Shown: piece by piece, positions 15,951 through 61,167 of the stretch | Layout of the letters: the number at the start of each line of letters is the position of its first letter | Position numbering within the stretch: the first letter of the stretch is position 1 | From: a virus | Lineage: Duplodnaviria; Caudoviricetes | Direction: 5' to 3' (one strand) | DNA: 64,000 nt | Virus record (IMG/VR): IMGVR_UViG_3300043010_000145 | Program-made: the position numbers and the translations under genes | The notes under the pieces: generated by a model | Told to the model about the DNA's origin: nothing | The model's database searches: none | Seen by the model: only the letters and a program-made list of their open reading frames with translations

Positions 15951-16041
15951 TCAGCCACATTTCCATTTTGCCCGCTGACATTTTGCCCAATATTTAGCAA
16001 AAAACAATATGATTTGTGTAAAACTTAGAAAGGAGAACATC

Positions 16042-21773: not shown

Positions 21774-22388
21774 ATGAGCAAAAGACAACATTTAGGCATT
21801 TTGTCTGCGGGGTTACTGGCAGTAAGCCTCGGAATAACAGGCAGCCTAGCTTTTATGACCACTACCCAAGCGAAAGAGAATGTATTTCTCATAGGGGATG
21901 ACTTTGGTACTGGTGATACAAGCAAGATAACTCTCACAGAGCCAAACTGGAAAGAAAGTTTGGCACAAGATGTTGTTGCAAATCAAACACTAAAAAAAGA
22001 CCCGACTGTAACCAACAATTCGGACATACCAGTGTATGCTTTTATTGTTGTAGATGAGCCTTTGATTACAGTTGATTCAAAGACAACACCTTTATTTTCT
22101 TATTCTTTAAATTCAGGCTGGATTGCATTAGCAACAAGTGAAACTACTGACACCAAGACAACAGTATATGCTTATGCAACAAATCTAGCCATGACAACAC
22201 TCTCGCCAACTTCTAGCACAACTTTATTCGATTCCGTTACCACTGCTTCATTCCCTAGTGGTAATGCTGTGCAAGGAACAGACCAGACGATTACAGTAAA
22301 ATCTTATGTTATCCAAACACAAGGCTTGAAGAGTAATTATCCACAAGATGTTTGGCAAGTTGTTCTCGGACAAGGAGTGAATGCATGA
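21774..22388 (+). CDS. SipW-class signal peptide protein (TasA/pilin-like), copy 2
   Basis: Close paralog of 18351-18968. Confidence 0.75.
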   Translation: MSKRQHLGILSAGLLAVSLGITGSLAFMTTTQAKENVFLIGDDFGTGDTSKITLTEPNWKESLAQDVVANQTLKKDPTVTNNSDIPVYAFIVVDEPLITVDSKTTPLFSYSLNSGWIALATSETTDTKTTVYAYATNLAMTTLSPTSSTTLFDSVTTASFPSGNAVQGTDQTITVKSYVIQTQGLKSNYPQDVWQVVLGQGVNA

Positions 22389-25300
22389 CTTTAAAGAACC
22401 ATTTACAAGTTTTATTTCTAACCTTATTCACTCTTCTTTCTTCTTTGCTGACACAGCCTACACAGATTTTTGTAGCTGCTGTCGAAGATTCAGACGATAC
22501 AGTTCTGTCATTTACGGTAGACACTTTCTTTACCGATTCCACGGGCAACCAGTCGGAAAGCTACACGGGCGGGAAAGTGTACGATTTATCTACGGTTAGC
22601 GAAGTTGCTTCTGTTACCAATACGGGAAGTTCTTGCTATATACGAGCCAAGGTAACGACAAATGATTGGGACGATTATGTAACATGTTATTTTCTTTCTG
22701 ATTGGATAATGAAACCTGACGGGTATTATTACTACATGAAAGCAGTTCAGCCAAATGAAACTGTAACTATTTTCGAGGGTATTGAATTTGCAGATGGTTT
22801 AGTAAAAGAATCCAATAAAAGATTGTCTAAATCTGTTACGGTTGGCATTTCCGTTGATGCAATCACAGACGAGTTAGAAGCAGATTTCACTTCTGACACA
22901 CCTTGGGCTGCTCTGCTTGCTTATACACCAGAATTACCAGAGGAAGATGCTGATGTTGATACGGATACAGATTCTAACTCGAACTCTAATTCCAATTCTA
23001 ATTCCAACAGCAATACAGCAAATTCTAATAATGCAACTAACAGCAACACTTCCACAAACGGAGCAAATGAAATTGTTCTGCCTGATGATAAGATTGTAAC
23101 CGTTGAAAAGAATGTAGTTTCTACGGGTATCAATACAAATTTAGGTTATCTTGTAGCTTTATTGTTTGCAGCAGCTGCCTTACTTATTCTGATTTATCTG
23201 CACAAAGATTCCTTTACACCGACAATGCAGAATAAGACATTATCTTTATTTGCCTTATTTGCTCTTTTCGGTTCTGCAAGCATTTGTACTGCGGGAACAT
23301 ATTCCTACATTACTTCTACTGACCAAGGGATTGATAATAAAGTTTCTTTTGCCGCTTATGAGCCAAAAGCATTTCTTGAAACTGGGGGTAATTTCAATAG
23401 TCATATTCCGTATGGTACAACGGCTATTGTTTTTACAGATGAATCCGCACCAGCTTCTGCAAGTTTGATAGATGTTTCCGAAGATAAAGATAATTCTGTT
23501 GTTGGCTGGTCTGATAATGATACTTTCTATGTTTCCTCTCAACAAGACGGTGTGATAATTTATGCGAATGAATTATCCGATAATATGTTCTCTTATCAGT
23601 CTGATTTGGAAAGTATTGATTTTACAAATTTAAACACAAAAGATGTTACAACAATGGCGAGTATGTTCGAGGGCTGCAGTAGTCTGCAAAGTCTAGACCT
23701 TTCTAGTTTCGATACTTCCAATGTTACAAATATGTATTATATGTTTGGCGATTGCACGGAGTTGGAAACCTTAGATATTTCTAATTTTGACACTTCCAAG
23801 GTTGAGAATATGTCATATATGTTTTTCAGTTGCGAGGACTTAGGAACACTTGACCTGACACATTTTGATACATCAAATGTAACAACAATGGAACGAATGT
23901 TTCACGATTGTATGAATTTAACATCTTTAAATGTGAAAGGTTGGAATACTTCAAATGTAACTAACATGTCAAATATGTTTGCTTATTGTGAATTGTTGAC
24001 TTCATTGAATGTTTCTAGTTTCGATACAAGCAATGTTACAGATATGAGTTGCATGTTCTATTATGACCGTGGCTTAGAAAAGCTAAATATTACGAATTTT
24101 GATACTTCCAAGGTAACAACAATGCAAGGAATGTTCTATTCTTGTTCAAGTATTAAGACATTAGATGTTTCCAAACTCGAAACAAAGAATGTAACAAGCA
24201 CTAATGCAATGTTCGGGTATATGACTAGCCTGACAACTCTTTATGCAGAGAAAGACCCAACAGTAAGCAATGTAACAAATTCAAAGAATATGTTCTATGG
24301 CGATACTGTTCTGAAAGGAACGATTAAATACAATAGCAGCTATGTTACAGTTTCTTACTATAATTTCAAAGGGTATTTAACGAAGAAAGTATCCACTTAT
24401 GCTTTACTTTCAGGCACAGATTTCGCTGATGCCATTCCATCTTCTGCTACAAAGATTGTATTCACAGACAGTACTGCACCAGCTAGTGCCGAGTTAATTG
24501 ATATGACAGATGGCCAAGACGGTTCTGTTGTAGCTTGGCTTGACGGTACAATATTGTATATTTCCAGTCAAAAGAGCGGGCAAGTCATTTATGCACCAAC
24601 AAATGCGAGTGGAATGTTTGAGAATTTGACAAATATTGTTTCTATTGATTTGAGTAATTTAGATACAACTAAGACAACAAATATGAAAGGAATGTTCTAT
24701 AACTGTTCTTCCTTAACTGATGTGAACACCGATAAATTAGACACAACGAGTGTTACAGATATGTCATTTATGTTCGGTAAATGCTCTGCTTTAACAGATG
24801 TTGATACAAGCAATTTTACAACTTCAAAGGTAACAACTTTCGAGGGTATGTTCAACGGATGTACTTCGCTTACAGATTTAGATTTATCTAACTTTACAAC
24901 GAGTGCTGCTACAAATACTTCATTTATGTTTGCAGCTTGCTCTAACCTTAAAACCGTAGATATTTGTCATTGGAGTTTTGCCAATGTTACAGATTTAAAT
25001 AGTATGTTCCAAGGTGATTCAGCCTTAACTACAATCTATGCAAGCAGAACACCAGATTTGCAGAAAGTTACCGCACACAGCAATATGTTTGTAGGAGATA
25101 CAAATCTTGTTGGCGAAACTTCTTTCGATTCTGCCAACGTTGATGCAAATTATTTTAATTTAAACTCTTATTTGACGAAGCATGATGACGATAGCCTGAC
25201 TTATATTATGAATACTGGTTTATTTGTAAGAGATAATATATCCTCTGATATGACAGAAGTTATCTTTACGGGTATAACGGCACCAGTAGGTGTAGCTTTA

Positions 25301-27820
25301 ACAGATTTTTCTAATGCAAAGGACGGTTCTGTTGTCGGCTGGGTAGTTGATACAAAATTGTATATATCTTCACAGTATAACAAACAAGTTGTATATGCTT
25401 ATTCTGATTCAACTTATATGTTCCAAGATAAGTCTAATTTAACGAATATTGACTTTTCAAATTTAGACACTTCTAAGATTACGAATTTTGTCTATTTCTT
25501 CTTTAATTGTTCTGGTTTGAAAACATTAGATGTTAGCAATTTTAATACAGAAAGTGCCTACAATATGCAATATATGTTCTACGGTTGCAGTGGCTTGACG
25601 GAGTTGGATTTAACTTCTTTCAACACAGAAAATGTTACAGTTGCACAGAGAATGTTTATGAACTGCACAAATCTGGAATCATTAGATATTAGTAGTTTTC
25701 GCACACCTAAATGGGAGCAGTTCTACGGTATGTTTACAAATTGTGAGAGTTTGGAACAGATAGACCTAAGTAATTTTGATACTTCCGTAGCTACAACTAT
25801 GAGTTATATGTTCTCTGGTTGTGAGAGTCTAACATCATTAGATGTTAGTAACTTTAAGACTAGTAAAGTAAAAGATATGGATAGTATGTTTGCTTACTGT
25901 TCTAGTTTAACATCATTAGATGTTAGTAGTTTTGATACTTCAAATGTTACAAGTATGTCATATATGTTTTATAGTATGACTAATATTAAGACATTGGATT
26001 TATCTAACTTTAATACTGCAAAAGTTACAACAATGGAGTATATGTTCTGTTATGATAGCTCTCTTATAACAGCAGATGTTTCTAATTTTAACACAAAAAA
26101 TGTTACAAAAATGCAGTGGATGTTTAATCAATGTAAATCATTAGAATATTTTGATATAAGTGCTTGGGATATGTCCTCCGTTCAATATATAGGGTATTTC
26201 TGCTACGGTGATTCTAAACTTAAAACTATTTATTCCTTAACAGATAAAACTTACCCTAAGCTAAGAGATGGAATGTATGCTTTTGTGGATTGTACAAGCC
26301 TTTCTGGCTCGCAGAAATTTTATCAGTATTATACTTCTATTGCTTACATGACATTTGATTATTATTTAACATATAGAGATAAAACAGATGCTTCTTATAC
26401 TCTCAAAAATGGTTATGATTTAAATGAATTGATACCTGATAATACAACACAAGTTATTTTTACAGATGCTACTGCACCAACTTCTGTTTCTGTTACAGAT
26501 GTGAGCGATACAGAAGATTCTTCCGTTGTGGCTTGGTCAGTAGGTACGAAGTTCTATATTTCTACTCAGACGGAAAATCAGAAAGTATTAGCCAACAGTA
26601 ATACGAATCAGATGTTTAAGGATAAAACATCTTTGACAAGTATTGACTTTACAAATTTTGATACAAGCACGGCTAAATCTTTCTATGGTCTGTTCCGAGG
26701 TTGTACTGCTCTGAAAACCTTAGATTTAAGTAATTTTGATACAAGTCAGGTTACCAATATGTCCCTTATGTTCTATCAGTGCCGTGCTTTAACGAGTTTG
26801 AATGTTTCCATGTTCAACACAAGCAATGCAGTATTGATGGATTCTATGTTTGCATATTGCTCTGGATTAACAGCATTAAATGTGTCTAATTTTAATACAA
26901 GCAAAGCCACCACTATTGCAGGTATGTTTGCTGGGTGTAGTTCAATTACTTCCTTAGATATTTCCAATTTTGATACAAGCAAAGTAACATCTATAAGTTC
27001 TTTATTCTATAATTGTAGAAATCTTACGAATTTAAATATTACAGGATTAACAACAAGTAAAGCTAAGAGCTTGCAAAGTATGTTTAGTGATTGTATTAGT
27101 TTAACAGAGTTAACTCTTGACTTTGATTTAAGTTCTTGTACAACTTTAAATAGTATGTTTTCAAATTGTTACAGTTTAACAAATTTAACATTAAACTTTA
27201 AAAATACAACAGGTATTACGGATATGGATAATTTTGTATCCTCTTGTACGAGTCTGACAAGTATAGACTTAACTTGTCTTGCTAATTCAAGTTTAACGAC
27301 AATGGCAAGTTGGTTTAAGGGTTGTACCAACTTAGTTAGTATAGATTTAAGTATGTTAAATACAAGCAAAGTTACATACTTTACTAGCTTATTTGCTAAT
27401 TGTACATCTCTTGAAGAAGTGAATATGAGTTCATTTGATACGAGTAAGGTAATAAGTATGGCTTATATGTTCCAAAATTGCACTAGCCTTGAATCCATTG
27501 ATTTATCTAATTTTAATACTGCTTCCGTAACATCGAACTATGATATGTTCGCTGGCTGTACTTCTTTAACAGTATTAGATTTATCTTCTTTTACCTTTAC
27601 GAAGGTTTCCAATATGGCAGAGTTTGTTAAAGGTTGTACAAACCTTACAACAATCTATGTGTCCGAGAACCCTACTTTATCCGCCTTAAAACTTGGCGGC
27701 GGAAATGACCGTGAAATGTTCTCCGGCTGTACATCTCTGCAAGGAGCGATTGCTTACTCCGAAGATTGCATCGGCGGTGCATATTTCAACACAGAAACTG
27801 GGTATTTAACAATTAAATAG
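22385..27820 (+). CDS. Large BspA/DUF285 LRR surface protein (four LRR blocks)
   Basis: Paralog of 18965-21628; poly-(NS) linker; four cap-plus-LRR modules. Confidence 0.85.
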   Translation: MTLKNHLQVLFLTLFTLLSSLLTQPTQIFVAAVEDSDDTVLSFTVDTFFTDSTGNQSESYTGGKVYDLSTVSEVASVTNTGSSCYIRAKVTTNDWDDYVTCYFLSDWIMKPDGYYYYMKAVQPNETVTIFEGIEFADGLVKESNKRLSKSVTVGISVDAITDELEADFTSDTPWAALLAYTPELPEEDADVDTDTDSNSNSNSNSNSNSNTANSNNATNSNTSTNGANEIVLPDDKIVTVEKNVVSTGINTNLGYLVALLFAAAALLILIYLHKDSFTPTMQNKTLSLFALFALFGSASICTAGTYSYITSTDQGIDNKVSFAAYEPKAFLETGGNFNSHIPYGTTAIVFTDESAPASASLIDVSEDKDNSVVGWSDNDTFYVSSQQDGVIIYANELSDNMFSYQSDLESIDFTNLNTKDVTTMASMFEGCSSLQSLDLSSFDTSNVTNMYYMFGDCTELETLDISNFDTSKVENMSYMFFSCEDLGTLDLTHFDTSNVTTMERMFHDCMNLTSLNVKGWNTSNVTNMSNMFAYCELLTSLNVSSFDTSNVTDMSCMFYYDRGLEKLNITNFDTSKVTTMQGMFYSCSSIKTLDVSKLETKNVTSTNAMFGYMTSLTTLYAEKDPTVSNVTNSKNMFYGDTVLKGTIKYNSSYVTVSYYNFKGYLTKKVSTYALLSGTDFADAIPSSATKIVFTDSTAPASAELIDMTDGQDGSVVAWLDGTILYISSQKSGQVIYAPTNASGMFENLTNIVSIDLSNLDTTKTTNMKGMFYNCSSLTDVNTDKLDTTSVTDMSFMFGKCSALTDVDTSNFTTSKVTTFEGMFNGCTSLTDLDLSNFTTSAATNTSFMFAACSNLKTVDICHWSFANVTDLNSMFQGDSALTTIYASRTPDLQKVTAHSNMFVGDTNLVGETSFDSANVDANYFNLNSYLTKHDDDSLTYIMNTGLFVRDNISSDMTEVIFTGITAPVGVALTDFSNAKDGSVVGWVVDTKLYISSQYNKQVVYAYSDSTYMFQDKSNLTNIDFSNLDTSKITNFVYFFFNCSGLKTLDVSNFNTESAYNMQYMFYGCSGLTELDLTSFNTENVTVAQRMFMNCTNLESLDISSFRTPKWEQFYGMFTNCESLEQIDLSNFDTSVATTMSYMFSGCESLTSLDVSNFKTSKVKDMDSMFAYCSSLTSLDVSSFDTSNVTSMSYMFYSMTNIKTLDLSNFNTAKVTTMEYMFCYDSSLITADVSNFNTKNVTKMQWMFNQCKSLEYFDISAWDMSSVQYIGYFCYGDSKLKTIYSLTDKTYPKLRDGMYAFVDCTSLSGSQKFYQYYTSIAYMTFDYYLTYRDKTDASYTLKNGYDLNELIPDNTTQVIFTDATAPTSVSVTDVSDTEDSSVVAWSVGTKFYISTQTENQKVLANSNTNQMFKDKTSLTSIDFTNFDTSTAKSFYGLFRGCTALKTLDLSNFDTSQVTNMSLMFYQCRALTSLNVSMFNTSNAVLMDSMFAYCSGLTALNVSNFNTSKATTIAGMFAGCSSITSLDISNFDTSKVTSISSLFYNCRNLTNLNITGLTTSKAKSLQSMFSDCISLTELTLDFDLSSCTTLNSMFSNCYSLTNLTLNFKNTTGITDMDNFVSSCTSLTSIDLTCLANSSLTTMASWFKGCTNLVSIDLSMLNTSKVTYFTSLFANCTSLEEVNMSSFDTSKVISMAYMFQNCTSLESIDLSNFNTASVTSNYDMFAGCTSLTVLDLSSFTFTKVSNMAEFVKGCTNLTTIYVSENPTLSALKLGGGNDREMFSGCTSLQGAIAYSEDCIGGAYFNTETGYLTIK

Positions 27821-29138: not shown

Positions 29139-30677
29139 ATGGCAATACATTTCTACAAAGGACACTTAACAGGCGATTACTTAGATGATGCTCTTTGCGA
29201 TAGGCTCCTTAAAATTCAACAGCTTTCCGAAGAAGGTGTTTCATTTGAAGCATTAAGGCATATCATATATGATTTAACACCAGAGCATATTGCACAAGTC
29301 ATGCAAACCAAAGAACCAATTTCACCCGAAACACTTGCACCCGAAGAAACTGGAACATTGACCTCTTTACAAACCGTTGGTGTTGCCTATATGTATCTTG
29401 CCAAGCGATTACTCTTAGCCGATTCCGTTGGTTTTGGTAAAACTCCGCAAGTTGCTGGTTTAATCAGATATATGCAAGAATTATCCCCAGATAAACAACC
29501 GCCCCGTTTTCTATATTGCACAAAAGCTAGTCTAATCGACAAAGACCACAGCGAGTTAATTCGCTTCACCAACTTACCCGTTCAACTATTACACGGTACA
29601 ACAAGTAAGCTAAAAAAAGAACTTGCTAAAAATCCAGATAGTTCCTATGTTGCACCGCATTCCATTATAAAAAATGCCACATTTCAAGAATGGCTGCTCC
29701 TTCACCCAGATGTTTTCGATATTATTGTTATAGATGAATCTGGTGCAGTTGGAACGGCTGGCACAACAGATTTCACCAAACCCGCTCAGCGAATTTGCAG
29801 TATGTCAGACCGAGTGATTTTGTTAAATGCCACACCATTCGAGTGTCGCTTAGATTCCTTTTGGAGTCAGCTCAATCTTGTAGACCCTACATTATTGCCT
29901 TCCCGTACAGAATTCCGCAGAATGTTCCAGCAGCAAGAATTTGACGGGTACTCTTGGCATTTCGTAGAAAAATACAAAAACCCCGCAGAGTTTAAAGAAG
30001 CAATACAACTTCGCTTTTTATCTCGCAAACGAATTACAACAGGCGGAACTATGACAAACTGTTCCGCAGAACTGATTACCCTAGGTAAGTCTGCTATACA
30101 AAAGAAGCTTGATGCCCTAACTACACAACATCAGCTTGTCTATGATTGTCCGAGCTTGATTGACAAAGATATTGATACCGATGTATCTACAACACCAAAA
30201 CTAGCCAAAACATTGGAACTTGTGCAATCACACCCAGATGAGCCAAGAATTCTAATTTATTGCCCGTATATCGAAGCACAAGCAGCTATACAACAGACTT
30301 TACAGCAATATGGATACAATACTCTTATTTTAAACGGACAAACTAAGCAAGATGACCGCTTAGCCATTACACAGCAGTTTACAAACAATGAAAAGCAAAT
30401 TCTCATAACCAATGTTATGGAGGGTATGAACCTAGGTAATTGCCACATGCTCATTTACTACACCTTATGCCCTAGTGCCAGCAAAATCGTGCAAGTGGAA
30501 GGTCGTATTACTCGTGAGCAAAATATCCAAGACAAACATGTTTATGTTTTAGCTACAAAAGGTAGAGAAATTAGCTATATACATAAAACGATAGCAAACA
30601 GAGCACGAGCTATGCAAGAGTTCCAAGGCAGAGATTTTAGCATGGTGCTTGACTTGTTAGAACAGGCGGGAGTTTAA
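29139..30677 (+). CDS. SNF2-like SF2 helicase/ATPase
   Basis: LADSVGFGKT (Walker A), VIDES, NATP, EGMNL, QVEGRITR. Confidence 0.85.
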   Translation: MAIHFYKGHLTGDYLDDALCDRLLKIQQLSEEGVSFEALRHIIYDLTPEHIAQVMQTKEPISPETLAPEETGTLTSLQTVGVAYMYLAKRLLLADSVGFGKTPQVAGLIRYMQELSPDKQPPRFLYCTKASLIDKDHSELIRFTNLPVQLLHGTTSKLKKELAKNPDSSYVAPHSIIKNATFQEWLLLHPDVFDIIVIDESGAVGTAGTTDFTKPAQRICSMSDRVILLNATPFECRLDSFWSQLNLVDPTLLPSRTEFRRMFQQQEFDGYSWHFVEKYKNPAEFKEAIQLRFLSRKRITTGGTMTNCSAELITLGKSAIQKKLDALTTQHQLVYDCPSLIDKDIDTDVSTTPKLAKTLELVQSHPDEPRILIYCPYIEAQAAIQQTLQQYGYNTLILNGQTKQDDRLAITQQFTNNEKQILITNVMEGMNLGNCHMLIYYTLCPSASKIVQVEGRITREQNIQDKHVYVLATKGREISYIHKTIANRARAMQEFQGRDFSMVLDLLEQAGV

Positions 30678-32529: not shown

Positions 32530-32919
32530 ATGAGCATAATTGATGATATTAAAGAGTTCCACCAAGTTTTCTTTACCGACCAGCTCCACGAGTTAGGTCT
32601 AGACCAGCCTGATGCAATCATCTCTAAATACCCACAACAGCAACAAAATACCGAATCCGTATCCATGCAAGCCACACCTGAGCAAATGCAACAGCCACAG
32701 CGGCAAGCTATGAATGGATATAATCAAATGCAACAGCAGATGCCTATGCAATCTGCATATAGCACTATGGGCAGTATGTCTATGGGAGGAATTGGTGGCG
32801 GTGGCTTTAATTCCATGGGTTCTATGGGAAGCGGTAGCCTAGGCGGGCAGTACTCTATACCAGATTCTGGGGGGTATTCCCTTGCAGATATTGATTTTGG
32901 TGATGATGACGATTTTTAG
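32530..32919 (+). CDS. Gln/Met/Gly-rich low-complexity protein with acidic-aromatic tail
   Basis: AAGGAGG RBS; ends DIDFGDDDDF. Confidence 0.75.
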   Translation: MSIIDDIKEFHQVFFTDQLHELGLDQPDAIISKYPQQQQNTESVSMQATPEQMQQPQRQAMNGYNQMQQQMPMQSAYSTMGSMSMGGIGGGGFNSMGSMGSGSLGGQYSIPDSGGYSLADIDFGDDDDF

Positions 32920-33005
32920 ATATATCTGATTATTTATGCTATAATTTGGTTAGAGAGTAATACAAGTTTAAGTATATCAAATTTATGCGGTGTAGCTTAA
33001 TGACA

Positions 33006-33198
33006 ATGGTGCGAACCTTTGACACACATAAAATTGTGGGAGGTTCGCACCTATTTTTAGTTAGATGATGACAGTATTTGTGTTTAATTGGAATGAGCAA
33101 CAGGTTTTGTTGGTTTTTGTGGAGTGGTATGCTACAATAAAAATGTAAAAAGAAACAGATTTGAGAGAAAATGCTATTATTTTTGTATTCTTTTTACT
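33006..33198 (+). promoter_or_regulatory. CRISPR leader 1
   Basis: GGTGCGAACC...GGTTCGCACC inverted repeat; homologous to leader 2. Confidence 0.85.
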
Positions 33199-34254
33199 GT
33201 TGCACTCCATACGGAGTGCGTGGATTGAAATCTTGGATTTTTTGCAATTCTAACAAGTCAGCCAGCAGGTTGCACTCCATACGGAGTGCGTGGATTGAAA
33301 TTTCATTACTTTTAGTAATATCTTCTGTAATAGCCAGTTGCACTCCATACGGAGTGCGTGGATTGAAATTTCTGTATCTTTGTCTTTGTCTTTGTCTGCT
33401 TCTACGAGTTGCACTCCATACGGAGTGCGTGGATTGAAATATAAATTGGAGCATAATCATAGGACATGCCCGACGTTGCACTCCATACGGAGTGCGTGGA
33501 TTGAAATGCAATACAACAGATAGGAATAGGCATAGCCTACATGTTGCACTCCATACGGAGTGCGTGGATTGAAATATAAGATTTTTTTCACGGACCAGCT
33601 CCACGAGTTGTTGCACTCCATACGGAGTGCGTGGATTGAAATATTATCAGGTTCGAAGGTGCAAGTATACCCATAGGTTGCACTCCATACGGAGTACGTG
33701 GATTGAAATTTCTATACCTAGTATGTCAAAGATACAGGTACAGTAGTTGCACTCCATACGGAGTGCGTGGATTGAAATATCGAAATATATCTGCCTTGAT
33801 ACATGCCGATTTTGTTGCACTCCATACGGAGTGCGTGGATTGAAATGAATTACTAATGCAATAAATGCTAGTAAAATCAGGTTGCACTCCATACGGAGTG
33901 TGTGGATTGAAATTCCACTCTGTGTGCTCAATGCTTACTGTATCGCCGTTGCACTCCATACGGAGTGCGTGGGTTGAAATATCTGCACCAAGCAAAACAT
34001 AGCACAAATCTTTATGTTGCACTCCATACGGAGTGCATGGATTGAAATTATCATTAATATTGTATAATTGAAGCCATGTTTTTTCCGTTGAACTCAATAC
34101 GGAGTTCATAGAGTTCATGGATTGAAATAATACATACAGCCTTACAGCAATGTTGCACTCCATACGGAGTGCGGGGATTGAAACGAAAGTGCCAGTGATG
34201 GATTACAAAATAACATATAGTTGTACTCCTTACGAGTGTGTGGGTTATCTAAAT
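33199..34254 (+). CRISPR. Type I-C array 1: 16 repeats (trailer repeats degenerate), 15 spacers
   Basis: 33-bp repeat GTTGCACTCCATACGGAGTGCGTGGATTGAAAT; spacers 34-38 nt, one of 23 nt. Confidence 0.98.
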
Positions 34255-34279
34255 CAAAAAGAAAGGGTGGAATACTGCT

Positions 34280-36469
34280 TTGCCAAACCAATCTAAAAAA
34301 TATATTGCACATAAGCGAGCAGACGGCACAGAGCAGTCGCTCGAAACACATCTGCAAAATGTAGCTGATAAAACAAGTTTCTTTTCTGCCCAATTCGGTT
34401 GCCCAACTTGTGGTTCTGTAATTGGTTATAGACATGATGCAGGTAAGTATTCCGCTGAATTTCAGACACGAATAAAAGAACATGGACCAAAGGTAGACCA
34501 TTCTACTTTTGGTGCAATTGGTTTAAAAAACCTACCCGGCTTACGAATGTTTTTGGGTATGCCTATTGCTTGTCATCATACAGGCTTGATTAACACGATG
34601 TTATCCGATAATTCAACTACTCCTAAAACATTTCAAGAGCGAATGAGTGATACTTATGTGATACCTTCCGTGTCCGTGGATTTGCCTAGTATTAAACAAG
34701 GTGATAAAACCTTCAATGCTTGTGTACAAGAGAGAAATAGCAAAATAGCAAATGTTAAAGATACGTTTGCCTATTCTTTTTACATTCGTATGTTATTATC
34801 TTGCCTTGTCGATGCCGATTACTTGGACACAGAAGCTTTTATGACCAATAATCGTGTACAGCGAGGGTATAACATATCTATGCTCAATCTACGAGATAGG
34901 TTAAACGATTATATTAAACCTTGGTTGTCTAATACAGATTTAACTACTGTTGGTGGTCATCGTACACAGATATTAAAAGAATGTATTACATCAGGTACAA
35001 ATAGCGAGCAAGGTTTGTTTACTCTTACAGTACCAACAGGTGGAGGTAAAACGGTATCCTCGTTGGCTTTTGCTTTAAATCATGCTATTGCAAATAAGCT
35101 AGACCGTATCATTTATGTCATACCTTACACAAGTATTATTGAGCAAAATGCACAAGTTTTTAGGAATATTTTAGGTGAAGACATTGTTCTAGAACATCAT
35201 TCCTCAGCCGATTTTGATGATAAAGAGGGTATTGATGAATATAGACTGAAATTAGCAACAGAAAATTGGGATATACCCGTAATTGTTACAACAAGTGTAC
35301 AATTTTTTACATCTTTTTATGCAACAAAAACATCTAAAGTACGAAAGTTGCATAATGTAGCAAATAGTGTGGTGATTTTCGATGAAGTGCAAATGTTGCC
35401 TAGACATATTTTATTACCATGCTTGAAAGTAATAAATACTTTGGTATCATTTTATAATACTACGACTATTTTATGTACTGCTACACAGCCTGCTTTTAAT
35501 ACATTAGGCATTTGGGACAAGCAACCTATGGAAATATGTCATACAGTCAACGAGCAATTTGCTTATTTTGACCGTGTAACTTATGAATATCTAGGCGATA
35601 ACTTGGCAACGGATACCTTTTATGACAAACTCATTACCTCTTATAATACTTATAAACAAGTACTTTGTATTGTAGACAGTAAGCAGAGGGCACAAAAGAT
35701 ATTTGATACTTTGCAAGATAAAGGCCTTACTGTTATGCATTTATCCGCATCTATGACACCATATCACCGCAAGCGAGCTGTTAAGCAAATTAAAGATATG
35801 CTCGCAAATAATGTGCCTGTCATTGTTGTGGCAACAACAGTTGTTGAGGCTGGTGTAGATTTAGATTTCCCTATTGTGTATAGACAAATAGCTGGCATGG
35901 ATTCAATTATACAGGCTGCTGGCCGTTGTAACCGCAACGGAAATCGTTCTAAACTGGATAGTTTTGTATATATTTTTGATTTTGCACAAAATAAGAGTTG
36001 GCTGAAGAGACAAGTAGAATATGTGGAAACACTTAAATATTTGCAGATAGACGTGAATCTTTTAAAAGACATAAATGCTTTGCAAAAGTATTTTTCTGAG
36101 TTGTATAATTTAGCCCAAGGTGGAGGTGGCCATAACAGTTTAGACGACAATGGTGTATTAGATTGTTTCTCTAAATTTACTCCCCAGTACATTGATGCAA
36201 GTGCTAAATTCGATTTTTTTGACACGGAAAATGGTGGTTTAACTTTATATATAGATTACGATTTGTATACTAGTATTGCTAGTAAGGAAATTGTTACAAA
36301 TGCGGATTATCGGGTATTAAGTCAGCATGCTGTATCTATAACAAAGCAGCGAGCTAGTGAATTACAAAATGATAATATCATATTACCAGCTTTTGGTACG
36401 GACTATTGTTTTGTATTGATTAACCCAGAATATTATGATACCAAATATAAAGGGTTATTATACCAATAA
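34280..36469 (+). CDS. cas3: CRISPR-associated helicase/nuclease Cas3
   Basis: HD domain (HDAGK, HH, DADYLDT), VPTGGGKT, DEVQ, TAT, QAAGRCNR. Confidence 0.95.
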   Translation: MPNQSKKYIAHKRADGTEQSLETHLQNVADKTSFFSAQFGCPTCGSVIGYRHDAGKYSAEFQTRIKEHGPKVDHSTFGAIGLKNLPGLRMFLGMPIACHHTGLINTMLSDNSTTPKTFQERMSDTYVIPSVSVDLPSIKQGDKTFNACVQERNSKIANVKDTFAYSFYIRMLLSCLVDADYLDTEAFMTNNRVQRGYNISMLNLRDRLNDYIKPWLSNTDLTTVGGHRTQILKECITSGTNSEQGLFTLTVPTGGGKTVSSLAFALNHAIANKLDRIIYVIPYTSIIEQNAQVFRNILGEDIVLEHHSSADFDDKEGIDEYRLKLATENWDIPVIVTTSVQFFTSFYATKTSKVRKLHNVANSVVIFDEVQMLPRHILLPCLKVINTLVSFYNTTTILCTATQPAFNTLGIWDKQPMEICHTVNEQFAYFDRVTYEYLGDNLATDTFYDKLITSYNTYKQVLCIVDSKQRAQKIFDTLQDKGLTVMHLSASMTPYHRKRAVKQIKDMLANNVPVIVVATTVVEAGVDLDFPIVYRQIAGMDSIIQAAGRCNRNGNRSKLDSFVYIFDFAQNKSWLKRQVEYVETLKYLQIDVNLLKDINALQKYFSELYNLAQGGGGHNSLDDNGVLDCFSKFTPQYIDASAKFDFFDTENGGLTLYIDYDLYTSIASKEIVTNADYRVLSQHAVSITKQRASELQNDNIILPAFGTDYCFVLINPEYYDTKYKGLLYQ

Positions 36470-36498
36470 AACTGTGGGGTTTTATCCCACAGTTTTTT
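36468..36498 (+). terminator. Terminator-like hairpin after cas3
   Basis: AAAACTGTGGG/CCCACAGTTTT plus T run; TTGTAT-17-TATACT promoter follows. Confidence 0.6.
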
Positions 36499-36603
36499 AT
36501 TTAGAAGCAAAGTTTTTTTGTATTCCCACATTCTATGTTGTATACTGAGTTTGTAAATAAAAGCGAGTGCTTTTACTGCTTTTACACGGAAAGGGGCAAA
36601 TAT

Positions 36604-37278
36604 ATGGGAAAAGGTATAATCTTGCACGTCTGGGGAGACGGTGCTGTTTATAGCAGACCAGAGTTGAAAGTCGAACGATACAGTTATGATGTTATAACAC
36701 CATCTGCAGCAAGAGGTATTTTAGATAGTATATTGTGGCATCCCGGTATGGAATGGGTTATTGATAAAATACATGTTATCAAACCAATACAAAGGGCAAG
36801 TATACAGCGGCGAGAATTGAAAAAGGTAATATCTAGTCGAAATGCGGCCAATATGCAAGATATTAGTATTTTAACATCTGATACAAGCAATAGTACTCTA
36901 CGATATACATCTTATTTGAAGCAAGTTGAGTATGTCATTGAAGCACATTTTATTATGACACCGCAAGCACACCCAAGCGATTATGACGGTAAATTCTATA
37001 AAATGGCAATCCGGCGAATGAGTAACGGGCAATGCTACAAGCAGCCATATTTTGGTTGCAGAGAATTCCCTGTCCATTTTGAACTTTTACGAAGTCCAGA
37101 AGATATACCAAAGTCTTATTATGCCAATACGGACACATATGATTTAGGTGTTATGCTTTACGATATGGATTATCAGTACAATAAGCCAAGCACAGTTAGA
37201 AAGATATCACCCATATGGTATCATGCTATTATGCACAAAGGTGTTATTGATTTAACAAATGTGGAGTTATTACGATGA
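36604..37278 (+). CDS. cas5c: Type I-C Cas5 (Cas5c/Cas5d)
   Basis: RPELKVERYSYDVITPSAARGIL...PYFGCREF. Confidence 0.95.
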   Translation: MGKGIILHVWGDGAVYSRPELKVERYSYDVITPSAARGILDSILWHPGMEWVIDKIHVIKPIQRASIQRRELKKVISSRNAANMQDISILTSDTSNSTLRYTSYLKQVEYVIEAHFIMTPQAHPSDYDGKFYKMAIRRMSNGQCYKQPYFGCREFPVHFELLRSPEDIPKSYYANTDTYDLGVMLYDMDYQYNKPSTVRKISPIWYHAIMHKGVIDLTNVELLR

Positions 37279-39203
37279 TATTACAGGATTTAGTAGCATG
37301 CTACGATATGTTGGCAGAAGATGAAACAGTACAAATACCAAAGATGGGCTATTCTTTTAGCCCAGTAGACTGGTGTTTAGTAGTTAATGACCAAGGCGAT
37401 TTAGTGGGTATGTATACCTGTGAAAGTACAACAGGTGTTACACCTAGTAAGGACCAACCAAAATCTGAATCTAAATCAAAAGCTAAGAAGCAGAAAACAC
37501 TCCGAAAAACTATGCTTGTACCTATTTTACCACCTCGTACAAGGAATGTAGATGCAGGAGTATTATATGATAATTTAGAATATATGTTGGGTTATAATAG
37601 CTTAGGTTATACGGGCACGACAGTAGAAAAGTATGTAAATTTTAGAGATAAAAATACGGAATTTCTAAAAGATATTGATACACCCGCAGCCAAAGCTGTT
37701 GTGAATTTCTATGCAAATTGGTCTCCACAGAATATTTCTAATCATTCTATTATTTCTGAACTTGGACAAGTACAAAAAATAGATGGTAAACAAATGGCTG
37801 TTTTTGTTTACGAGGGCACAGGCGAGTATGTGCTGCAAGATGAAGAAATCAAAGCAAAATGTGATAGTACTTGTGCAAAAAGGTATGCAAAAGATTTCAT
37901 AAAGCAAACAGATGAAACTCAATCTGCCATATCTTTGGTTTCTGGCGATAAAGTTGATGCCACTTGCTATAAGCATACTCAGATTAAAGGATTGCATAAT
38001 TCTCAGCCTAGCGGTGCCTCTTTGGTATCCTTTAATGCAGACTCTTTTTGTTCTTACGGTTTAGAGCAGTCCTATAATGCACCTGTCGGTGTCATTGATA
38101 TGTATAAATATACAACAGCTCTTAATTATCTTATAAAAGCTGGTAGCGGATATAATCGAAGAATTGATGATACAACCACAATTGTGTATTGGTCTGCTGA
38201 TAAAAGTGTGAACGATATAGATTCAGACCTATTCAATACTGATAGTGCAAAGTTGACAGAAGTATTGCATTTATTACAAGGCAATACAACTACTATTACT
38301 GATAAACATCTGCAAGTAGATTTATCTGCACCTTATTTTATTGCTTTTTTTAAGCTAAATCATGGTGCAAGGATATATGTTGAGCGGTATATCACAACCA
38401 ATGTGGGCAATTTGTTGCAAGGTTCGTATAACCACTATAAGCGATTAGAGATGTTTAGAGCATCCTATGAATCAGCAAGCGGGGTAGCACCCTATCATAT
38501 TTTGCAACAAACACTTCGAGAAGCAGATAGAAAAGGTGAAACTTATTCTGGCAAGTTTGAGGGTAGTATACTATCTGATTTATATATGTCTATTGTAACA
38601 GATACACCTTATCCACAGGCTCTTGCTGATAGTATTATGAATCGTATAAGTAAGTCTATGCAAGATGATTACCAGATAAATTATACAAATATGTCTTTTT
38701 TGAAGGCGTATTTGATTAAGAATAAAAATCTACAAGGAGGAGAAAAATATATGGCATTAAATGAAGAATCTGAGAATACAATGTATAATATTGGTCGTCT
38801 AATTGCAGTTTGTGATTATGCACAAACCATTTATAGTAATGATAAGAGGACTAGACCAATTCGCAAAAAATATCTTGTAGGTGTAACGGAACACCCATCA
38901 AGCTTGTTACCGCAGCTCTTAGCAAAACACAATGTGTATGTAACAGCCCTCCTTGCCAAAGATACCGAAAAAAAGCATACAGGCACTTTCCTTGATAGAT
39001 GTACAGCAGATATTTTAGCAAAAATTGATAATGTGCCTGCAACTACAAAGCAAGAGGACCAGATGATGTGCTATTTAGGGTATTATCATCAGTTAAAAAA
39101 GTTCTATACAAAAAAAACTGATAAAGATACCGTAGATAAAGATACAATTGATGTCAATACAGATATGCAGTCCAATACAGAAACAACAGAAGGAGATGAC
39201 TAG
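37275..39203 (+). CDS. cas8c: Type I-C Cas8c/Csd1
   Basis: MILQDL start, LVSFN..SF.SYG..Q..NAP, LGYYHQ. Confidence 0.93.
   Translation: MILQDLVACYDMLAEDETVQIPKMGYSFSPVDWCLVVNDQGDLVGMYTCESTTGVTPSKDQPKSESKSKAKKQKTLRKTMLVPILPPRTRNVDAGVLYDNLEYMLGYNSLGYTGTTVEKYVNFRDKNTEFLKDIDTPAAKAVVNFYANWSPQNISNHSIISELGQVQKIDGKQMAVFVYEGTGEYVLQDEEIKAKCDSTCAKRYAKDFIKQTDETQSAISLVSGDKVDATCYKHTQIKGLHNSQPSGASLVSFNADSFCSYGLEQSYNAPVGVIDMYKYTTALNYLIKAGSGYNRRIDDTTTIVYWSADKSVNDIDSDLFNTDSAKLTEVLHLLQGNTTTITDKHLQVDLSAPYFIAFFKLNHGARIYVERYITTNVGNLLQGSYNHYKRLEMFRASYESASGVAPYHILQQTLREADRKGETYSGKFEGSILSDLYMSIVTDTPYPQALADSIMNRISKSMQDDYQINYTNMSFLKAYLIKNKNLQGGEKYMALNEESENTMYNIGRLIAVCDYAQTIYSNDKRTRPIRKKYLVGVTEHPSSLLPQLLAKHNVYVTALLAKDTEKKHTGTFLDRCTADILAKIDNVPATTKQEDQMMCYLGYYHQLKKFYTKKTDKDTVDKDTIDVNTDMQSNTETTEGDD
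38751..39203 (+). CDS. cas11: Internally translated Cas11 small subunit
   Basis: In-frame ATG (MALNEES..YNIGRL) preceded by AAGGAGG inside cas8c, as known for type I-C. Confidence 0.8.
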   Translation: MALNEESENTMYNIGRLIAVCDYAQTIYSNDKRTRPIRKKYLVGVTEHPSSLLPQLLAKHNVYVTALLAKDTEKKHTGTFLDRCTADILAKIDNVPATTKQEDQMMCYLGYYHQLKKFYTKKTDKDTVDKDTIDVNTDMQSNTETTEGDD

Positions 39204-39204
39204 T

Positions 39205-40089
39205 ATGACAGCTTTAAATAACAAATATGATTTTATATTGCTTTTTGATGTAACTGACGGTAACCCAAACGGAGACCCTGATGCAGACAATATGCCAAGA
39301 AGAGACTATGAAACAGGGCATGGTATTGTTACAGATGTTTGTATTAAACATAAAATCCGTAATTATGTCGAGCAAGTAAAAAAAGGCGAGGACGGTTATG
39401 ATTTATATATTAAGTCAGGTATTTCATTAAATACAAAAGATAATCAAGCTCTGGATGAATTAGGTGTTCCTAAATCTAAGACGAAATCAGGGAAAAAAGA
39501 TAAAGATACGGATAAAAAAATAAAAGAGTATATGTGCCATAAATATTTTGATATTCGTACCTTTGGTGCAGTTATGACAACATTTACACAAGGGGCATTA
39601 AATTCAGGACAAATAACAGGCCCAGTTCAACTTACTTTTGCTCGTAGTGTTGACCCTATTACTGTGAACAATTATACTTTGACTCGTTGTGTAATTACTA
39701 AGGAAGACGAAGCCGAAACTAAGAATAATACTATGGGTAAAAAACCTATGGTTTACTATGGCTTATATAAAATGTATGGACATATTAATGCAAATCTAGC
39801 AAACGATGTAACACATTTTTCCGAGGAAGACTTAGAGTTACTTTGGCAAGCAATCGAGGGTATGTTCGAATTGGACCATGCGGCTGCACGAGGAACTATT
39901 AATTTACGAGAGCTGATTATTTTCAAGCATGAATCTGTATATGGTAATTGTGCAAGCTATAAGCTGTTTGACCGTGTGCATATCACTAAAAAAGATGGTG
40001 TAGTATATCCAAGAGAATATTCTGACTATACTGTGGATATTGATACAAAAGATATGCCTGCAAATGTTACTCTGATTCGCAGAGGTTAA
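39205..40089 (+). CDS. cas7c: Type I-C Cas7/Csd2
   Basis: GNPNGDPDADNMPR, FDIRTFGAV, GPVQL, TMG.K. Confidence 0.95.
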   Translation: MTALNNKYDFILLFDVTDGNPNGDPDADNMPRRDYETGHGIVTDVCIKHKIRNYVEQVKKGEDGYDLYIKSGISLNTKDNQALDELGVPKSKTKSGKKDKDTDKKIKEYMCHKYFDIRTFGAVMTTFTQGALNSGQITGPVQLTFARSVDPITVNNYTLTRCVITKEDEAETKNNTMGKKPMVYYGLYKMYGHINANLANDVTHFSEEDLELLWQAIEGMFELDHAAARGTINLRELIIFKHESVYGNCASYKLFDRVHITKKDGVVYPREYSDYTVDIDTKDMPANVTLIRRG

Positions 40090-40123
40090 TATAATATAAA
40101 ATTTCTGATTTGAGGAAATTTTT

Positions 40124-40328
40124 AATGGTGCGAACCTTTAACACACATAAAAGTGCGGGAGGTTCGCACCTATTTTTTAGTTAAATGTTGTTAAATGTTG
40201 ACAGTATTTGGTGTTAGTTAGAATAAGCAACGAGTTTTTGTTGTTTTATGCAGAGGGTATGGTATAATAAAAATACAAAAAGAAATAGATTTAATGAAAA
40301 CTGCTATTATTTTTGTATTCTTTTTGCT
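40124..40328 (+). promoter_or_regulatory. CRISPR leader 2
   Basis: Diverged duplicate of leader 1. Confidence 0.85.
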
Positions 40329-41376
40329 GTTGCACTCCATACGGAGTGCGTGGATTGAAATACCTACACGGCTAGGCACGGGTATAGACTGGACTGTTGC
40401 ACTCCATACGGAGTGCGTGGATTGAAATTGTAGATATTGCATGCAGCCAAGTAATCCATTTAAGTTGCACTCCATACGGAGTGCGTGGATTGAAATATTT
40501 TTGTGTGTAGTACGGATACCATAGGTGTGTGAGTGTTGCACTCCATACGGAGTGCGTGGATTGAAATTACTAGCTATATGGATTTTGCTAAAAATCCGCT
40601 GGGTTGCACTCCATACGGAGTGCGTGGATTGAAATTTCAAAAATAAGCTTGGCTTGTGAATCATCATTAGGTTGCACTCCATACGGAGTGCGTGGATTGA
40701 AATAATAATTTAATCAATTTTTTAACTACAAAATAACAGTTGCACTCCATACGGAGTGCGTGGATTGAAATAGGAAAAGAAAAGCACAAGTCATTCGACT
40801 TGTGCTAGTTGCACTCCATACGGAGTGCGTGGATTGAAATCATCTTTTAAGATTCGTACTATGTCGAGTACATGTTGCACTCCATACGGAGTGCGTGGAT
40901 TGAAATCTCCGTGACCATACACAAGCCAAGACTGACTTCACGTTGCACTCCATACGGAGTGCGTGGATTGAAATAACCAAGCTACAACAGAAGCACCTGA
41001 AGGAACTGAGGTTGCACTCCATACGGAGTGCGTGGATTGAAATACTTGCAGGCAACAACCCGCCCCGCTTTATATTAGCAGGTTGCACTCCATACGGAGT
41101 GCGTGGATTGAAATTACGGTTTTACTGATACCCGTAGAAAGTGTATCATGTTGCACTCCATACGGAGTGCGTGGATTGAAATAGCCTATGTTAGCAATCT
41201 TTACCAATACACAGAGTTGCACTCCATACGAAGTGCGTGGATTGAAATCTGAAAGGAATGAGATAATTCTGCAACTAGCAGGCAAAATTGCACTCCATAC
41301 GGAGTGCGGGGATTGAAATATTACTTGTACAGGCAAAGAACTCACAGGTGATAGTTGCACTCCATACGGAGTGGAT
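40329..41376 (+). CRISPR. Type I-C array 2: 16 repeats (last truncated), 15 spacers
   Basis: Same 33-bp repeat; no spacer shared with array 1; terminator at 41385-41415. Confidence 0.98.
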
Positions 41377-41469
41377 GACACTAGAAAAGCCACCATGATT
41401 ACATGGTGGCTTTTGCTTTTTAACTAAAACACATACATTATATGATATAATCAAATAAAAGGAGGATTT

Positions 41470-42585
41470 ATGGGACTAAGCAAATTTATTTTATCACTAT
41501 CCGTGTATATCATTAAACTATTTACATTTTGGTTGCCCCAAGATAGAAATCGCATCACATGTATTACTTGCACGGGCAAAGAGCTAACAGGAGATATGGA
41601 GCAAGTGTACAACTACCTTGAAACACATACTAATTATAAGTTAAAGAAAATTTGCTACAACTACAAGCCAACCATTAAGAGCAAACTAGGTTACTTTTGG
41701 AATTGCTTGCACCAATACATTGCCCTAAAACGTAGCAAATTAGTCATTATCAACGACAACAACTACATCATCTCCCGCCACAAGCCAAAACACACACAAG
41801 TTATTCAACTTTGGCACGCCTGTGGTGCTGTGAAAAAATGTGGCAATCAAACCAAAAGAGCTTACAAAATCAAAAATTATGACATAGTTACAGCCACATC
41901 ACCAGCTTGGCGAGATGTCTACACACAAGCATTTAATGTCAATCGCTGGCAAGTACATGTAACGGGCATGCCTCGTATTGATTACTTTTTGTCTGATTAC
42001 ACCGATAAAATTGCTGCTTTTTATGATAAATACCCAATGTTGAAAGATAAAAAAATTGTATTGTATGCACCAACATTTCGTGGCACAACCACTAAGAAAG
42101 ATATACATTTAGATGTGCCAAATTATGCAGATTTACTTTCTAAGCTAAATACTGACACAAATGATTATGCTATTGTCTGCAAATATCATCCGCTTTTGCA
42201 GATTAAGACAGAGCAAACGGATACTATCATAGATTGCTCAGGCGAGGATTTATACACCTTAATGCACATTTGCGATTGCTTGATTACTGATTACAGCAGT
42301 ATTATTTTCGACTACTCCTTGTTGGGTAAACCTTGTATTTTATATGTTCCTGACTTAGACAATTACACAGACAATGTTGGTTTAAACTTAACCATAGATG
42401 AATTGCAAGATTTTGCCACAGTTATCAAAAGTGAAGAAGATTTACCCACAGCCATTCAGGGTATCGACACCACCACAGCATCTGTTAAAGCAAAAGAATT
42501 TGCAAACAAATATATGCCAAATGCAGATACCAATAACTGCAAAAGAGTTTGTGAATTAATTGAGCAGAGAATGACTTATTATTGA
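41470..42585 (+). CDS. CDP-glycerol glycerophosphotransferase family (TagB/TagF-like)
   Basis: QLWHACGAVKK, GMPRID, LYAPTFR, ITDYSSIIFDY. Confidence 0.9.
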   Translation: MGLSKFILSLSVYIIKLFTFWLPQDRNRITCITCTGKELTGDMEQVYNYLETHTNYKLKKICYNYKPTIKSKLGYFWNCLHQYIALKRSKLVIINDNNYIISRHKPKHTQVIQLWHACGAVKKCGNQTKRAYKIKNYDIVTATSPAWRDVYTQAFNVNRWQVHVTGMPRIDYFLSDYTDKIAAFYDKYPMLKDKKIVLYAPTFRGTTTKKDIHLDVPNYADLLSKLNTDTNDYAIVCKYHPLLQIKTEQTDTIIDCSGEDLYTLMHICDCLITDYSSIIFDYSLLGKPCILYVPDLDNYTDNVGLNLTIDELQDFATVIKSEEDLPTAIQGIDTTTASVKAKEFANKYMPNADTNNCKRVCELIEQRMTYY

Positions 42586-42618: not shown

Positions 42619-43302
42619 TTATTTTAATGTATCTAACAGAAGTTTTTGGTTCTTCTTGTTCTTCAATAACAACTGACAAGCCATAGTATAACTAATACTA
42701 TAATTATACTCTACCCATTTCTCCCAATCGCCACCTACTGCACGGACAATTTCTTCTGCTAACTCATCAAACATTTCTCCCAAGGCGATGAAAAAGTTTG
42801 TCTGCTCATACATTTCGACAAATGTATTATTCTTCCCCAAATCATATTGCATATACCCGTCCACAACTCGCTGGGTTTCTGGGTTATACATCTCTCGTGT
42901 ATTCCCCTCACTCTTATAAATATCCATGCAAAATCTCTCATACTGTCTGCCCGTTTTCCAAGTACAGCTCATGTACACTCCGTCCAGACCTTCTTGCACA
43001 GACATTACAGCCGTTTTTCTTGCTTTTTCTTCGGTTTCAAACTCATCAGGGTATGAAGTTAATAGCAGTTGTGTTGTTTCCTTTATGGCTTCTGCCACAT
43101 CTTCCCGCTGTAAAATCTTACTAAAAACTCCGTTATCCGTAACATCGTATTCAATGTTATATAAATCATCATATAGATACTCTACATCATAGCTTTTAAG
43201 TACGGTATCGTTGTTAAAATAAGCAAGAAATAATTGGTACATCTTGTTGTACCATTCGGTAGAATCAAAATAATCTACAAATGTTTCGTAATTTTTATAC
43301 AT
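42619..43302 (-). CDS. Acidic hypothetical protein, paralog A
   Basis: Shares YLYDD.YNI, QYDL..N..F and QLLL.N.KN with its neighbour. Confidence 0.8.
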   Translation of the reverse strand: MYKNYETFVDYFDSTEWYNKMYQLFLAYFNNDTVLKSYDVEYLYDDLYNIEYDVTDNGVFSKILQREDVAEAIKETTQLLLTSYPDEFETEEKARKTAVMSVQEGLDGVYMSCTWKTGRQYERFCMDIYKSEGNTREMYNPETQRVVDGYMQYDLGKNNTFVEMYEQTNFFIALGEMFDELAEEIVRAVGGDWEKWVEYNYSISYTMACQLLLKNKKNQKLLLDTLK

Positions 43303-43304: not shown

Positions 43305-43988
43305 CTATTCCTCACTTTCAAAGCCAAGCAACTCTCGATTTTTCGGATTTTGCAACAATAATTGCAACAACATATCCGCCGTAATGCCATAGTCTGCATC
43401 ATACCACGCTATCCTATCTATACCTAGACTAGCCAGTATTTCTGTACTCAAATCTATGACCACATCATTTACAGCAGCAATCAAGCCACTTGTGTTGTAA
43501 ATTGCCATAAATTCCGTATTTGTACTCAAATCATACTGTACAAAAGTTTGCATAATTTTATTCGTATCTGGTGCAAACAACTCTTTGCCCGTCCTTTTTG
43601 CCAAAGCTAACACCAGCTTGTAATAAGTGTTGTCTCCTCGCCAATAACAATCGAAGCACAAATAGTCCAAGTAATCTGCTACTCTGCTCTCAACACCTTC
43701 TCTTGCAGTTTCATCATTATCCGCAAAATAAGGGTATTCTGTCCGTGCGATTTTTGTCAATTTTTGTATGTAAGCCTCTGCTTGCTCGCTTGCCATAATG
43801 CTCGCTACAACATCTTTTGCTGTAAAATTATGTGTAATGTTATAAAAATCATCATAGAGATATTGCACATTGTTTTCTGCCAACATATCATCTGTAAAGT
43901 AACCTAAATATAGGTTAAATATCTGGTTATGCACATAAGCCGAATTTATGTAATTATCTAGTAGAGGGTATCTCACCTTGTCAATCAT
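43305..43988 (-). CDS. Acidic hypothetical protein, paralog B
   Basis: GAGGAGG RBS; same length (227 aa) as its neighbour. Confidence 0.8.
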   Translation of the reverse strand: MIDKVRYPLLDNYINSAYVHNQIFNLYLGYFTDDMLAENNVQYLYDDFYNITHNFTAKDVVASIMASEQAEAYIQKLTKIARTEYPYFADNDETAREGVESRVADYLDYLCFDCYWRGDNTYYKLVLALAKRTGKELFAPDTNKIMQTFVQYDLSTNTEFMAIYNTSGLIAAVNDVVIDLSTEILASLGIDRIAWYDADYGITADMLLQLLLQNPKNRELLGFESEE

Positions 43989-54539: not shown

Positions 54540-54556
54540 AGTCCGTCCCCTCTTTT

Positions 54557-55138: not shown

Positions 55139-55288
55139 ATTTTTATGCTCCTTTATACACACATATTAGCATAGAATAGTATATTATGCAATATCTTCAT
55201 AGCATTTCCTAGGGTATTCACTCCTAATTTTTAAATTTACAATACTAAAAACACAGGAATTCCCTACGGGAATTCCTGCTCTTTTTTC

Positions 55289-55909: not shown

Positions 55910-55922
55910 ATTTATCACTCCT

Positions 55923-56462: not shown

Positions 56463-56463
56463 T

Positions 56464-58632: not shown

Positions 58633-58657
58633 TTTCCGTCCTCTCCCTTTACCGCAT

Positions 58658-61150: not shown

Positions 61151-61167
61151 TATTTTGCTCCTCAGTT

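Follow-up and report, generated by a model that had tools for sequence, protein, structure and literature searches.

A type I-C CRISPR cassette on a large low-GC element carries spacers derived from foreign alleles of both of its flanking genes

Introduction

The Saccharolobus portogloboviruses SPV1 and SPV2 carry CRISPR mini-arrays (short palindromic repeats, clustered and regularly interspaced) with targets near the array in a related virus, and the carrier's own sites are mutated or deleted; the origin and consequences of this proximity were called unclear (Medvedeva et al. 2019, PMC6858448). Here we analyse a compact type I-C CRISPR-Cas cassette at positions 33005-41386 (plus strand) of a 64,000-nucleotide (nt) stretch of DNA, hereafter the window, which is catalogued as IMG/VR virus record IMGVR_UViG_3300043010_000145 (Duplodnaviria; Caudoviricetes) and in which two of 29 spacers derive from diverged alleles of the genes immediately left and right of the cassette. 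The locus resembles the portoglobovirus case in its element-borne arrays, array-close targets, carrier sites mutated against self-targeting, leaders and spacer turnover. The portoglobovirus spacers match a close relative; here a relative of that kind is suggested by the synonymous divergence of the two alleles and is absent from the collections searched, whereas the sibling viruses of SPV1 and SPV2 are known. In addition, those viruses have only one or two spacers, no cas genes and host effectors, as opposed to 29 spacers and a full Cas3-Cascade type I-C gene set on a bacterial-type element.

Two further groups of element-borne arrays are close to this locus. In phages and prophages, some mini-arrays and isolated repeat units have spacers that target adjacent genes of close relatives and not the carrier (Faure et al. 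2019, via PMC6858448), although, as they are summarised there, these units have no leaders or cas genes and are thought to have gained their spacers by recombination. The CRISPR systems of huge phages usually lack Cas1, Cas2 and Cas4 and have been proposed to serve competitor elimination (Al-Shayeb et al. 2020, PMC7162821), and the present locus shares with them the missing adaptation genes, a very large element and the kind of role proposed. It differs from their type I-C variant, in which a helicase replaces Cas3, as Cas3 here keeps its HD motifs, and from their median of six repeats (PMC7162821), as the arrays here are larger. The carrier of the present locus is only a putative phage.

RNA-guided homing is represented by the IS200/IS605 elements, whose TnpB and IscB nucleases use omega-RNA guides (Meers et al. 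2023, 10.1101/2023.03.14.532601). There, as here, a natural RNA-guided nuclease has guides corresponding to element-flanking DNA, and in the TnpB/IscB case the nuclease biases inheritance of the element; the differences are that the TnpB/IscB guide is hard-wired, matches the vacated site perfectly and serves a single-protein effector, whereas the spacers analysed here are acquired and diverged from the flank. The free-standing phage homing endonucleases of T4 (SegF/SegG and MobE) likewise practise intronless homing and marker exclusion from a nuclease locus beside the gene whose foreign allele is cut, with the resident allele immune by polymorphism, but they recognise their targets through protein, make one double-strand break and have been shown to co-convert, whereas Cas3 degrades processively. 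CRISPR-associated transposons (types I-F3, I-B and V-K) have homing spacers that, like the last spacer of array 2 here, are terminal, lie between atypical repeats and match an adjacent gene; unlike the present cassette, they have no Cas3 and carry tnsA/B/C-tniQ.

Results

Every spacer was compared ungapped, in both orientations, with the window and a 17-kb extension obtained by walking along contigs (81 kb in all). Two spacers gave matches above noise, one in each flanking gene. Spacer A1S06 (33576-33609, plus strand), the sixth of 14 in array 1, traces to a left-gene allele that has diverged and matches the resident site at 32561-32594 (plus strand) at 27 of 34 positions, with mismatches at 2, 3, 5, 6, 11, 14 and 17 and a 5' flank of TCC. 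Spacer A2S15 (41320-41353, plus strand), the oldest of array 2, comes from a diverged allele of the right gene and matches 41563-41596 (plus strand) at 29 of 34 positions, with mismatches at 9, 12, 21, 24 and 30, all of them synonymous, and a 5' flank of TGT. In a shuffle null of 300 shuffles per spacer against the 81 kb the top score never exceeded 25, compared with the observed 27 and 29, which rules out a chance origin of the two matches; borderline matches of A2S12 and A2S13 (0.70-0.71 identity) fall inside the null range. A peptide-level search recovered the same two spacers and no others, and the remaining spacers had no above-noise match in the 81 kb at either the nucleotide or the peptide level. 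The original prediction, in which two clear matches had been reported, one per flanking gene, is thereby upheld, and its distance of about 410 bp between the left site and leader 1 agrees with the 411 bp measured from the end of the site to the leader start (33005). It was right that the second target gene is adjacent to array 2, although the site starts 177 bp past the truncated final repeat (41386) and not about 190 bp, and its count of 30 spacers is one too high for the window, which has 29 (14 and 15), the thirtieth being found only at the leader end in one other sample (L001, see below).

The distribution of the mismatches identifies the origin of both spacers. In A2S15 all five occupy synonymous third codon positions (hypergeometric P = 0.0017), and in A1S06 five of seven are at third positions (P = 0.024), the other two resulting in Q>K and V>I. 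If a captured spacer were free to drift, it would gain changes at all codon positions; differences that are synonymous or conservative therefore indicate that the divergence arose between two coding alleles and not by spacer drift, in line with what had been predicted about mostly synonymous differences and about foreign alleles of both flanking genes as the source. The donors were thus functional homologous alleles, about 15-20% diverged in nucleotides from the residents. A paralogue within the element was considered as a donor and rejected: the protein collections searched include the proteins of this element's 577-kb contig and contain no paralogue of either flanking gene, which places the donors outside this element.

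The protospacer-adjacent motif (PAM) of type I-C systems is 5'-TTC, and neither resident flank has it, as the original prediction had noted. The left site reads Phe-His (TTC-CAC), and the synonymous TTT-CAT, with AT starting the spacer, would yield TTC. At the right site the PAM position is occupied by codon 31 of the right gene, TGT (Cys; 41560-41562, plus strand). Across an alignment of 20 right-gene homologues this column holds Phe (TTY) in 18 and Leu in one, with Cys only in the resident; an ancestral Phe codon TTC in the donor would provide a canonical type I-C PAM. TTC is reconstructible at both donor sites. The resident right allele appears from this alignment to have lost its PAM through an amino-acid change at a near-invariant Phe. 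Furthermore, A2S15 pairs perfectly with the resident right site at positions 1-8, and three of its five mismatches (12, 24 and 30) fall at every-sixth positions, which Cascade does not read, suggesting that it is the loss of the PAM that protects this site. The left site has additional seed mismatches at 2, 3 and 5. The carrier's orthologous sites are thus altered on both flanks, as expected under conflict between siblings, and we read the Phe-to-Cys change at the PAM position as a probable footprint of selection against self-cutting and hence as a sign of real interference activity.

Neither site is more than 650 bp away from the cassette, which has a probability of about 3e-4 under uniform placement in the 72.7 kb of non-cassette sequence; the suspected clustering of self-like matches at the locus is therefore not due to chance. 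If the 27 other spacers came from a colinear sibling, about 3.4 more self-like matches would be expected and none was observed (P ~0.03), indicating that an exclusion of siblings spread evenly over the whole element would be only part of the explanation. Both targets are on the plus strand with the PAM side leftward, a same-strand arrangement that does not point in particular to homing from two sides.

Searches for related sequences extended to metagenome, phage, plasmid and viral collections. The exact A2S15 sequence and 28-mers of the three newest spacers were absent from the viral contigs searched, and degenerate codon patterns for both target peptides had no match in metagenome or viral contigs. 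Comparison of both arrays with phage and plasmid records matched only repeats of other arrays, a 19-kb region had no relatives among phages and plasmids, and a search for related loci using the left gene found none. Scans with the repeat pattern returned only unrelated Clostridia type I-C arrays with variant loops, whose spacers do not match the window and are not matched by the spacers of the window.

The cassette is organised as leader, array 1 (14 spacers), cas3-cas5-cas8c-cas7, leader and array 2 (15 spacers), all on the plus strand. Leader 1 (33005-33198, 194 nt) consists of a hairpin followed by an AT-rich promoter-like stretch and is a direct repeat of leader 2 (40124-40328), the two copies being about 90% identical. 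Array 1 (33199-34184) has 15 copies of a 33-nt stem-loop repeat, GTTGCACTCCATACGGAGTGCGTGGATTGAAAT, of which the final two units are degenerate, and array 2 (40329-41386) ends in a truncated repeat and is closed by an intrinsic terminator (41385-41414). Type I-C repeats are normally 32-33 nt long and end in ATTGAAA(C/T), as this one does, and close variants of it are present in type I-C arrays of Clostridia metagenome-assembled genomes, metagenomes and Bacillales megaplasmids. The genes are also those of type I-C, in a single operon and a locus without cas6: cas3 (34280-36469, 729 amino acids (aa)), with helicase domains identified by Pfam and an HD region at the N-terminus; cas5c (36535-37278; PF09704, 1e-33); cas8c (Csd1; 37275-39203; PF09709, 7e-101), whose closest known relatives are only ~30% identical in a protein search; and cas7 (39205-40089; PF05107, 1e-95), of 294 aa according to the gene call in L001. 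The match of the Cas3 N-terminus to the HD profile is weak, but in the translation one can read the H, HD, DH, HH and D motifs. The gene set is complete for interference, and the cassette looks like a functional type I-C interference system, with activity presumed from its gene content. The adaptation genes usual in type I-C (cas1, cas2 and cas4) were found neither in the cassette nor elsewhere in the 81 kb. A CRISPR-associated transposon was rejected, as Cas3 is present and no flanking open reading frame (ORF) matched a transposase, tnsA/B/C-tniQ included.

Some units of the arrays are atypical. In the penultimate repeat of array 1 (34087-34151) the stem carries paired changes and 9 nt of the 3' arm are duplicated, and a short spacer of 23 nt follows just upstream of cas3; this variant unit could be a regulatory unit resembling a CRISPR RNA (crRNA), or plain decay. 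Spacers A2S07 (40772-40807) and A2S04 (40568-40602) are themselves palindromic and terminator-like, suggesting that some donors were probably intergenic hairpins.

The left flanking gene (32530-32919, plus strand), recognised from its ORF and translation, encodes a 129-aa orphan protein with a short N-terminal helix region, a disordered stretch rich in Q, M, G and S and an acidic tail (DIDFGDDDDF); this ending resembles the tails at the C-terminus of single-stranded-DNA-binding proteins. The gene is located downstream of an SNF2-type helicase gene (29139-30677). It had no Pfam, PHROG or PADLOC match and zero homologues among 5.8 billion clusters and 1.84 billion representatives; weak matches to a TPR protein and an fn3 protein were spurious. 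The right flanking gene (41470-42585, plus strand) has homologues and encodes a TagB/TagF-like CDP-glycerol/ribitol-phosphate transferase of 371 aa (PF04464, 1e-62), with 45% identity to its closest TagF-like relative. Directly past it are two adjacent paralogous 227-aa genes of unknown function on the minus strand (42619-43302 and 43305-43988).

The carrier is a large, clonal and otherwise orphan low-GC element with contigs of up to 577 kb. In at least six samples the contigs agree with the window at 100% identity along their overlap, the few mismatches being confined to one contig end. Samples holding the element include JGI 3300043085, 3300043009, 3300049151/2 and 3300035504, and SRR11793927/8 and SRR11793836. 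Sample L001 (JGI 3300043085) has one extra spacer (L001:17833-17867) between leader 2 and the first array-2 spacer of the window and is otherwise 100% identical to the window over 17.8 kb. This gain at the leader end shows polarised acquisition to be ongoing, and as cas4-cas1-cas2 are absent, adaptation is probably supplied in trans.

The gene content looks like that of a mobile element, though hallmark genes were not found in the 81 kb, which also contain no housekeeping genes and a single tRNA, tRNA-Leu(TAA) (6453-6540). At least four DNA methyltransferases of N6 and C5 types are encoded (3540-5177, 12395-13621, 52934-53887 and L026:527-2593), together with two giant DUF285/BspA-like leucine-rich-repeat surface proteins (18932-21628, 898 aa; 22352-27820, 1822 aa), each gene preceded by a paralogous gene of ~215 aa. 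In the right end of the window (53931-64000) and about 10 kb beyond it (contigs L017 and L026), at least 16 paralogous genes for proteins of ~180-240 aa stand in tandem, every one of them on the minus strand and with no Pfam or PHROG match; a second family, of three members, is interleaved with this one.

A third case of a guide-like copy of a neighbouring gene is present at a distance from the cassette, in the form of a solitary type I-E-like repeat (9728-9755) within a transcription unit of its own at 9463-9856 and followed by a guide-like stretch at 9757-9807. Read in frame, these 51 nt reproduce the final 16 codons and stop codon of the gene at 9074-9274, 454 bp upstream of the repeat, with 41 of 51 identical. 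Two origins are conceivable for this unit, a guide aimed at a sibling's allele or, given the many tandem paralogues of the region, what is left of one of these. The repeat is also the exact point at which several assemblies end (contig ends at 9754 and 9729). Two paralogous stand-alone proteins with a Cas3 HD-nuclease domain and no helicase (14652-15545, 297 aa; 16009-17124, 371 aa) are encoded 17-19 kb from the type I-C cassette, and these could serve I-E-like guide units that have no cas genes of their own.

Discussion

These observations are best explained, with a probability that we put at roughly 0.58, by exclusion of sibling elements, in which the spacers are linked to resident alleles that escape cutting. 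Donor alleles diverged by 15-20% point to a sibling element, and we infer that both spacers were captured from functional sibling alleles of the two genes flanking the cassette, presumably by Cas1-Cas2-Cas4 acting in trans. The resident alleles would be spared by the absence of a TTC PAM, which on the left (TCC) reflects a synonymous difference and on the right (TGT) the Phe-to-Cys change, with the left seed mismatches adding to this protection. The crRNAs would most likely guide Cascade-Cas3 to destroy siblings that enter the same cell, a form of heterotypic exclusion. The third guide-like unit of the window, in which a neighbouring gene is likewise copied, counts in favour of this account. 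Linkage may account for the position of the targets: among recombining siblings a spacer would be safe only if inherited together with its immune, non-target allele, so that targets close to the array are the ones expected to persist. Recombinational rescue of a cut sibling would also co-convert the cassette, as a homing-like by-product and not a demonstrated function.

Several points weigh against this interpretation. No sibling element, empty site or perfect protospacer was present in any collection searched, and no matching target was found for the other 27 spacers. A search of the 81 kb for genes of virions, conjugation or replication recognised none, and the element is at most a candidate mobile element. 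Family membership is the ground for assuming both an active interference and a TTC PAM, and the linkage argument is a proposal of our own.

It is unlikely that the spacers are relics of array-proximal self-acquisition, left behind after autoimmunity had selected for PAM loss and the flank alleles had been replaced from a relative. This sequence of events is attractive on the premise that DNA beside an active array is a hot spot for acquisition, both sites being close to the arrays, and it fits the non-synonymous Phe-to-Cys change at a near-invariant residue, which resembles an emergency escape from the PAM, as well as the position of A2S15 as the oldest spacer, between variant repeats. It does not easily accommodate the differences, which number five to seven per 34 nt, are almost without exception synonymous and require a second coding allele, not escape or drift, and it needs two independent allele replacements, one on each flank, with the cassette retained. 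Useless spacers are also unlikely to stay intact, and A1S06 is mid-array between perfect repeats. Self-acquisition with replacement is for these reasons less parsimonious than exclusion of siblings.

In the original prediction the locus was taken as a candidate for CRISPR-guided homing, or gene drive, in which the spacers would cut cassette-less siblings on both sides and repair would copy the 8.4-kb cassette with its flanks. We consider this quite unlikely, even though there is a target on either flank, no more than 650 bp from the cassette, and the resident immunity rests on polymorphism, as homing would have it. Cas3 is processive and would open a gap across the insertion site, which also counts in its favour. 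That natural RNA-guided homing exists is clear from TnpB/IscB, with guides that correspond to flanking DNA (10.1101/2023.03.14.532601). However, neither an empty-site relative nor any sibling was found in the collections searched, and only two of the 29 spacers are of the flank-matching kind. As the sites share a strand, Cas3 would be expected to traverse the insertion point when loaded on the right and to head away from the cassette when loaded on the left. Furthermore, degradation by Cas3 usually destroys the target rather than converting it, and an identical layout would be expected from plain exclusion combined with linkage. The homing reading is possible, if doubtful, and the layout does not demand it.

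Very unlikely, in our estimation, is an addiction-like retention of the locus, in which the spacers would kill recombinants or destroy incoming DNA that would delete the cassette, in the manner of post-segregational killing by restriction-modification systems. Such retention would share the positional evidence given above and would work for a chromosome as well as for a mobile element, but it has no direct evidence of its own, requires Cascade to persist after loss of the cassette and has no precedent in the literature searched. Self-regulation, in which partly matching crRNAs let Cascade bind and repress the resident flanking genes, is highly improbable despite the perfect pairing of A2S15 at 1-8 and its three of five mismatches at skipped positions, given the missing PAM at the right site (TGT), the seed mismatches at 2, 3 and 5 and TCC flank at the left site, and the location of both sites within ORFs and not at promoters.

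Array-proximal targeting of close relatives has already been published, which lowers the novelty of this locus. Compared with the published cas-less mini-arrays, this case has three additional features, namely a full Cas3-containing effector carried by the element, a target on either side of the cassette and the replacement of a near-invariant Phe by Cys at the PAM position. The system poses a question for the bench, that is, whether a guide that is linked to its immune allele does no more than stabilise exclusion or drives conversion of the rival, and a second type of guide in the same genome that also copies a neighbouring gene adds to its value as a test system. It is a speculative prospect, which we regard as improbable, that the cassette is a natural CRISPR-guided drive and that array-proximal spacers against siblings are a poison-antidote linkage strategy of many large phage-like elements. 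If true, such a strategy would explain the proximity of array and target that was left unexplained by Medvedeva et al.

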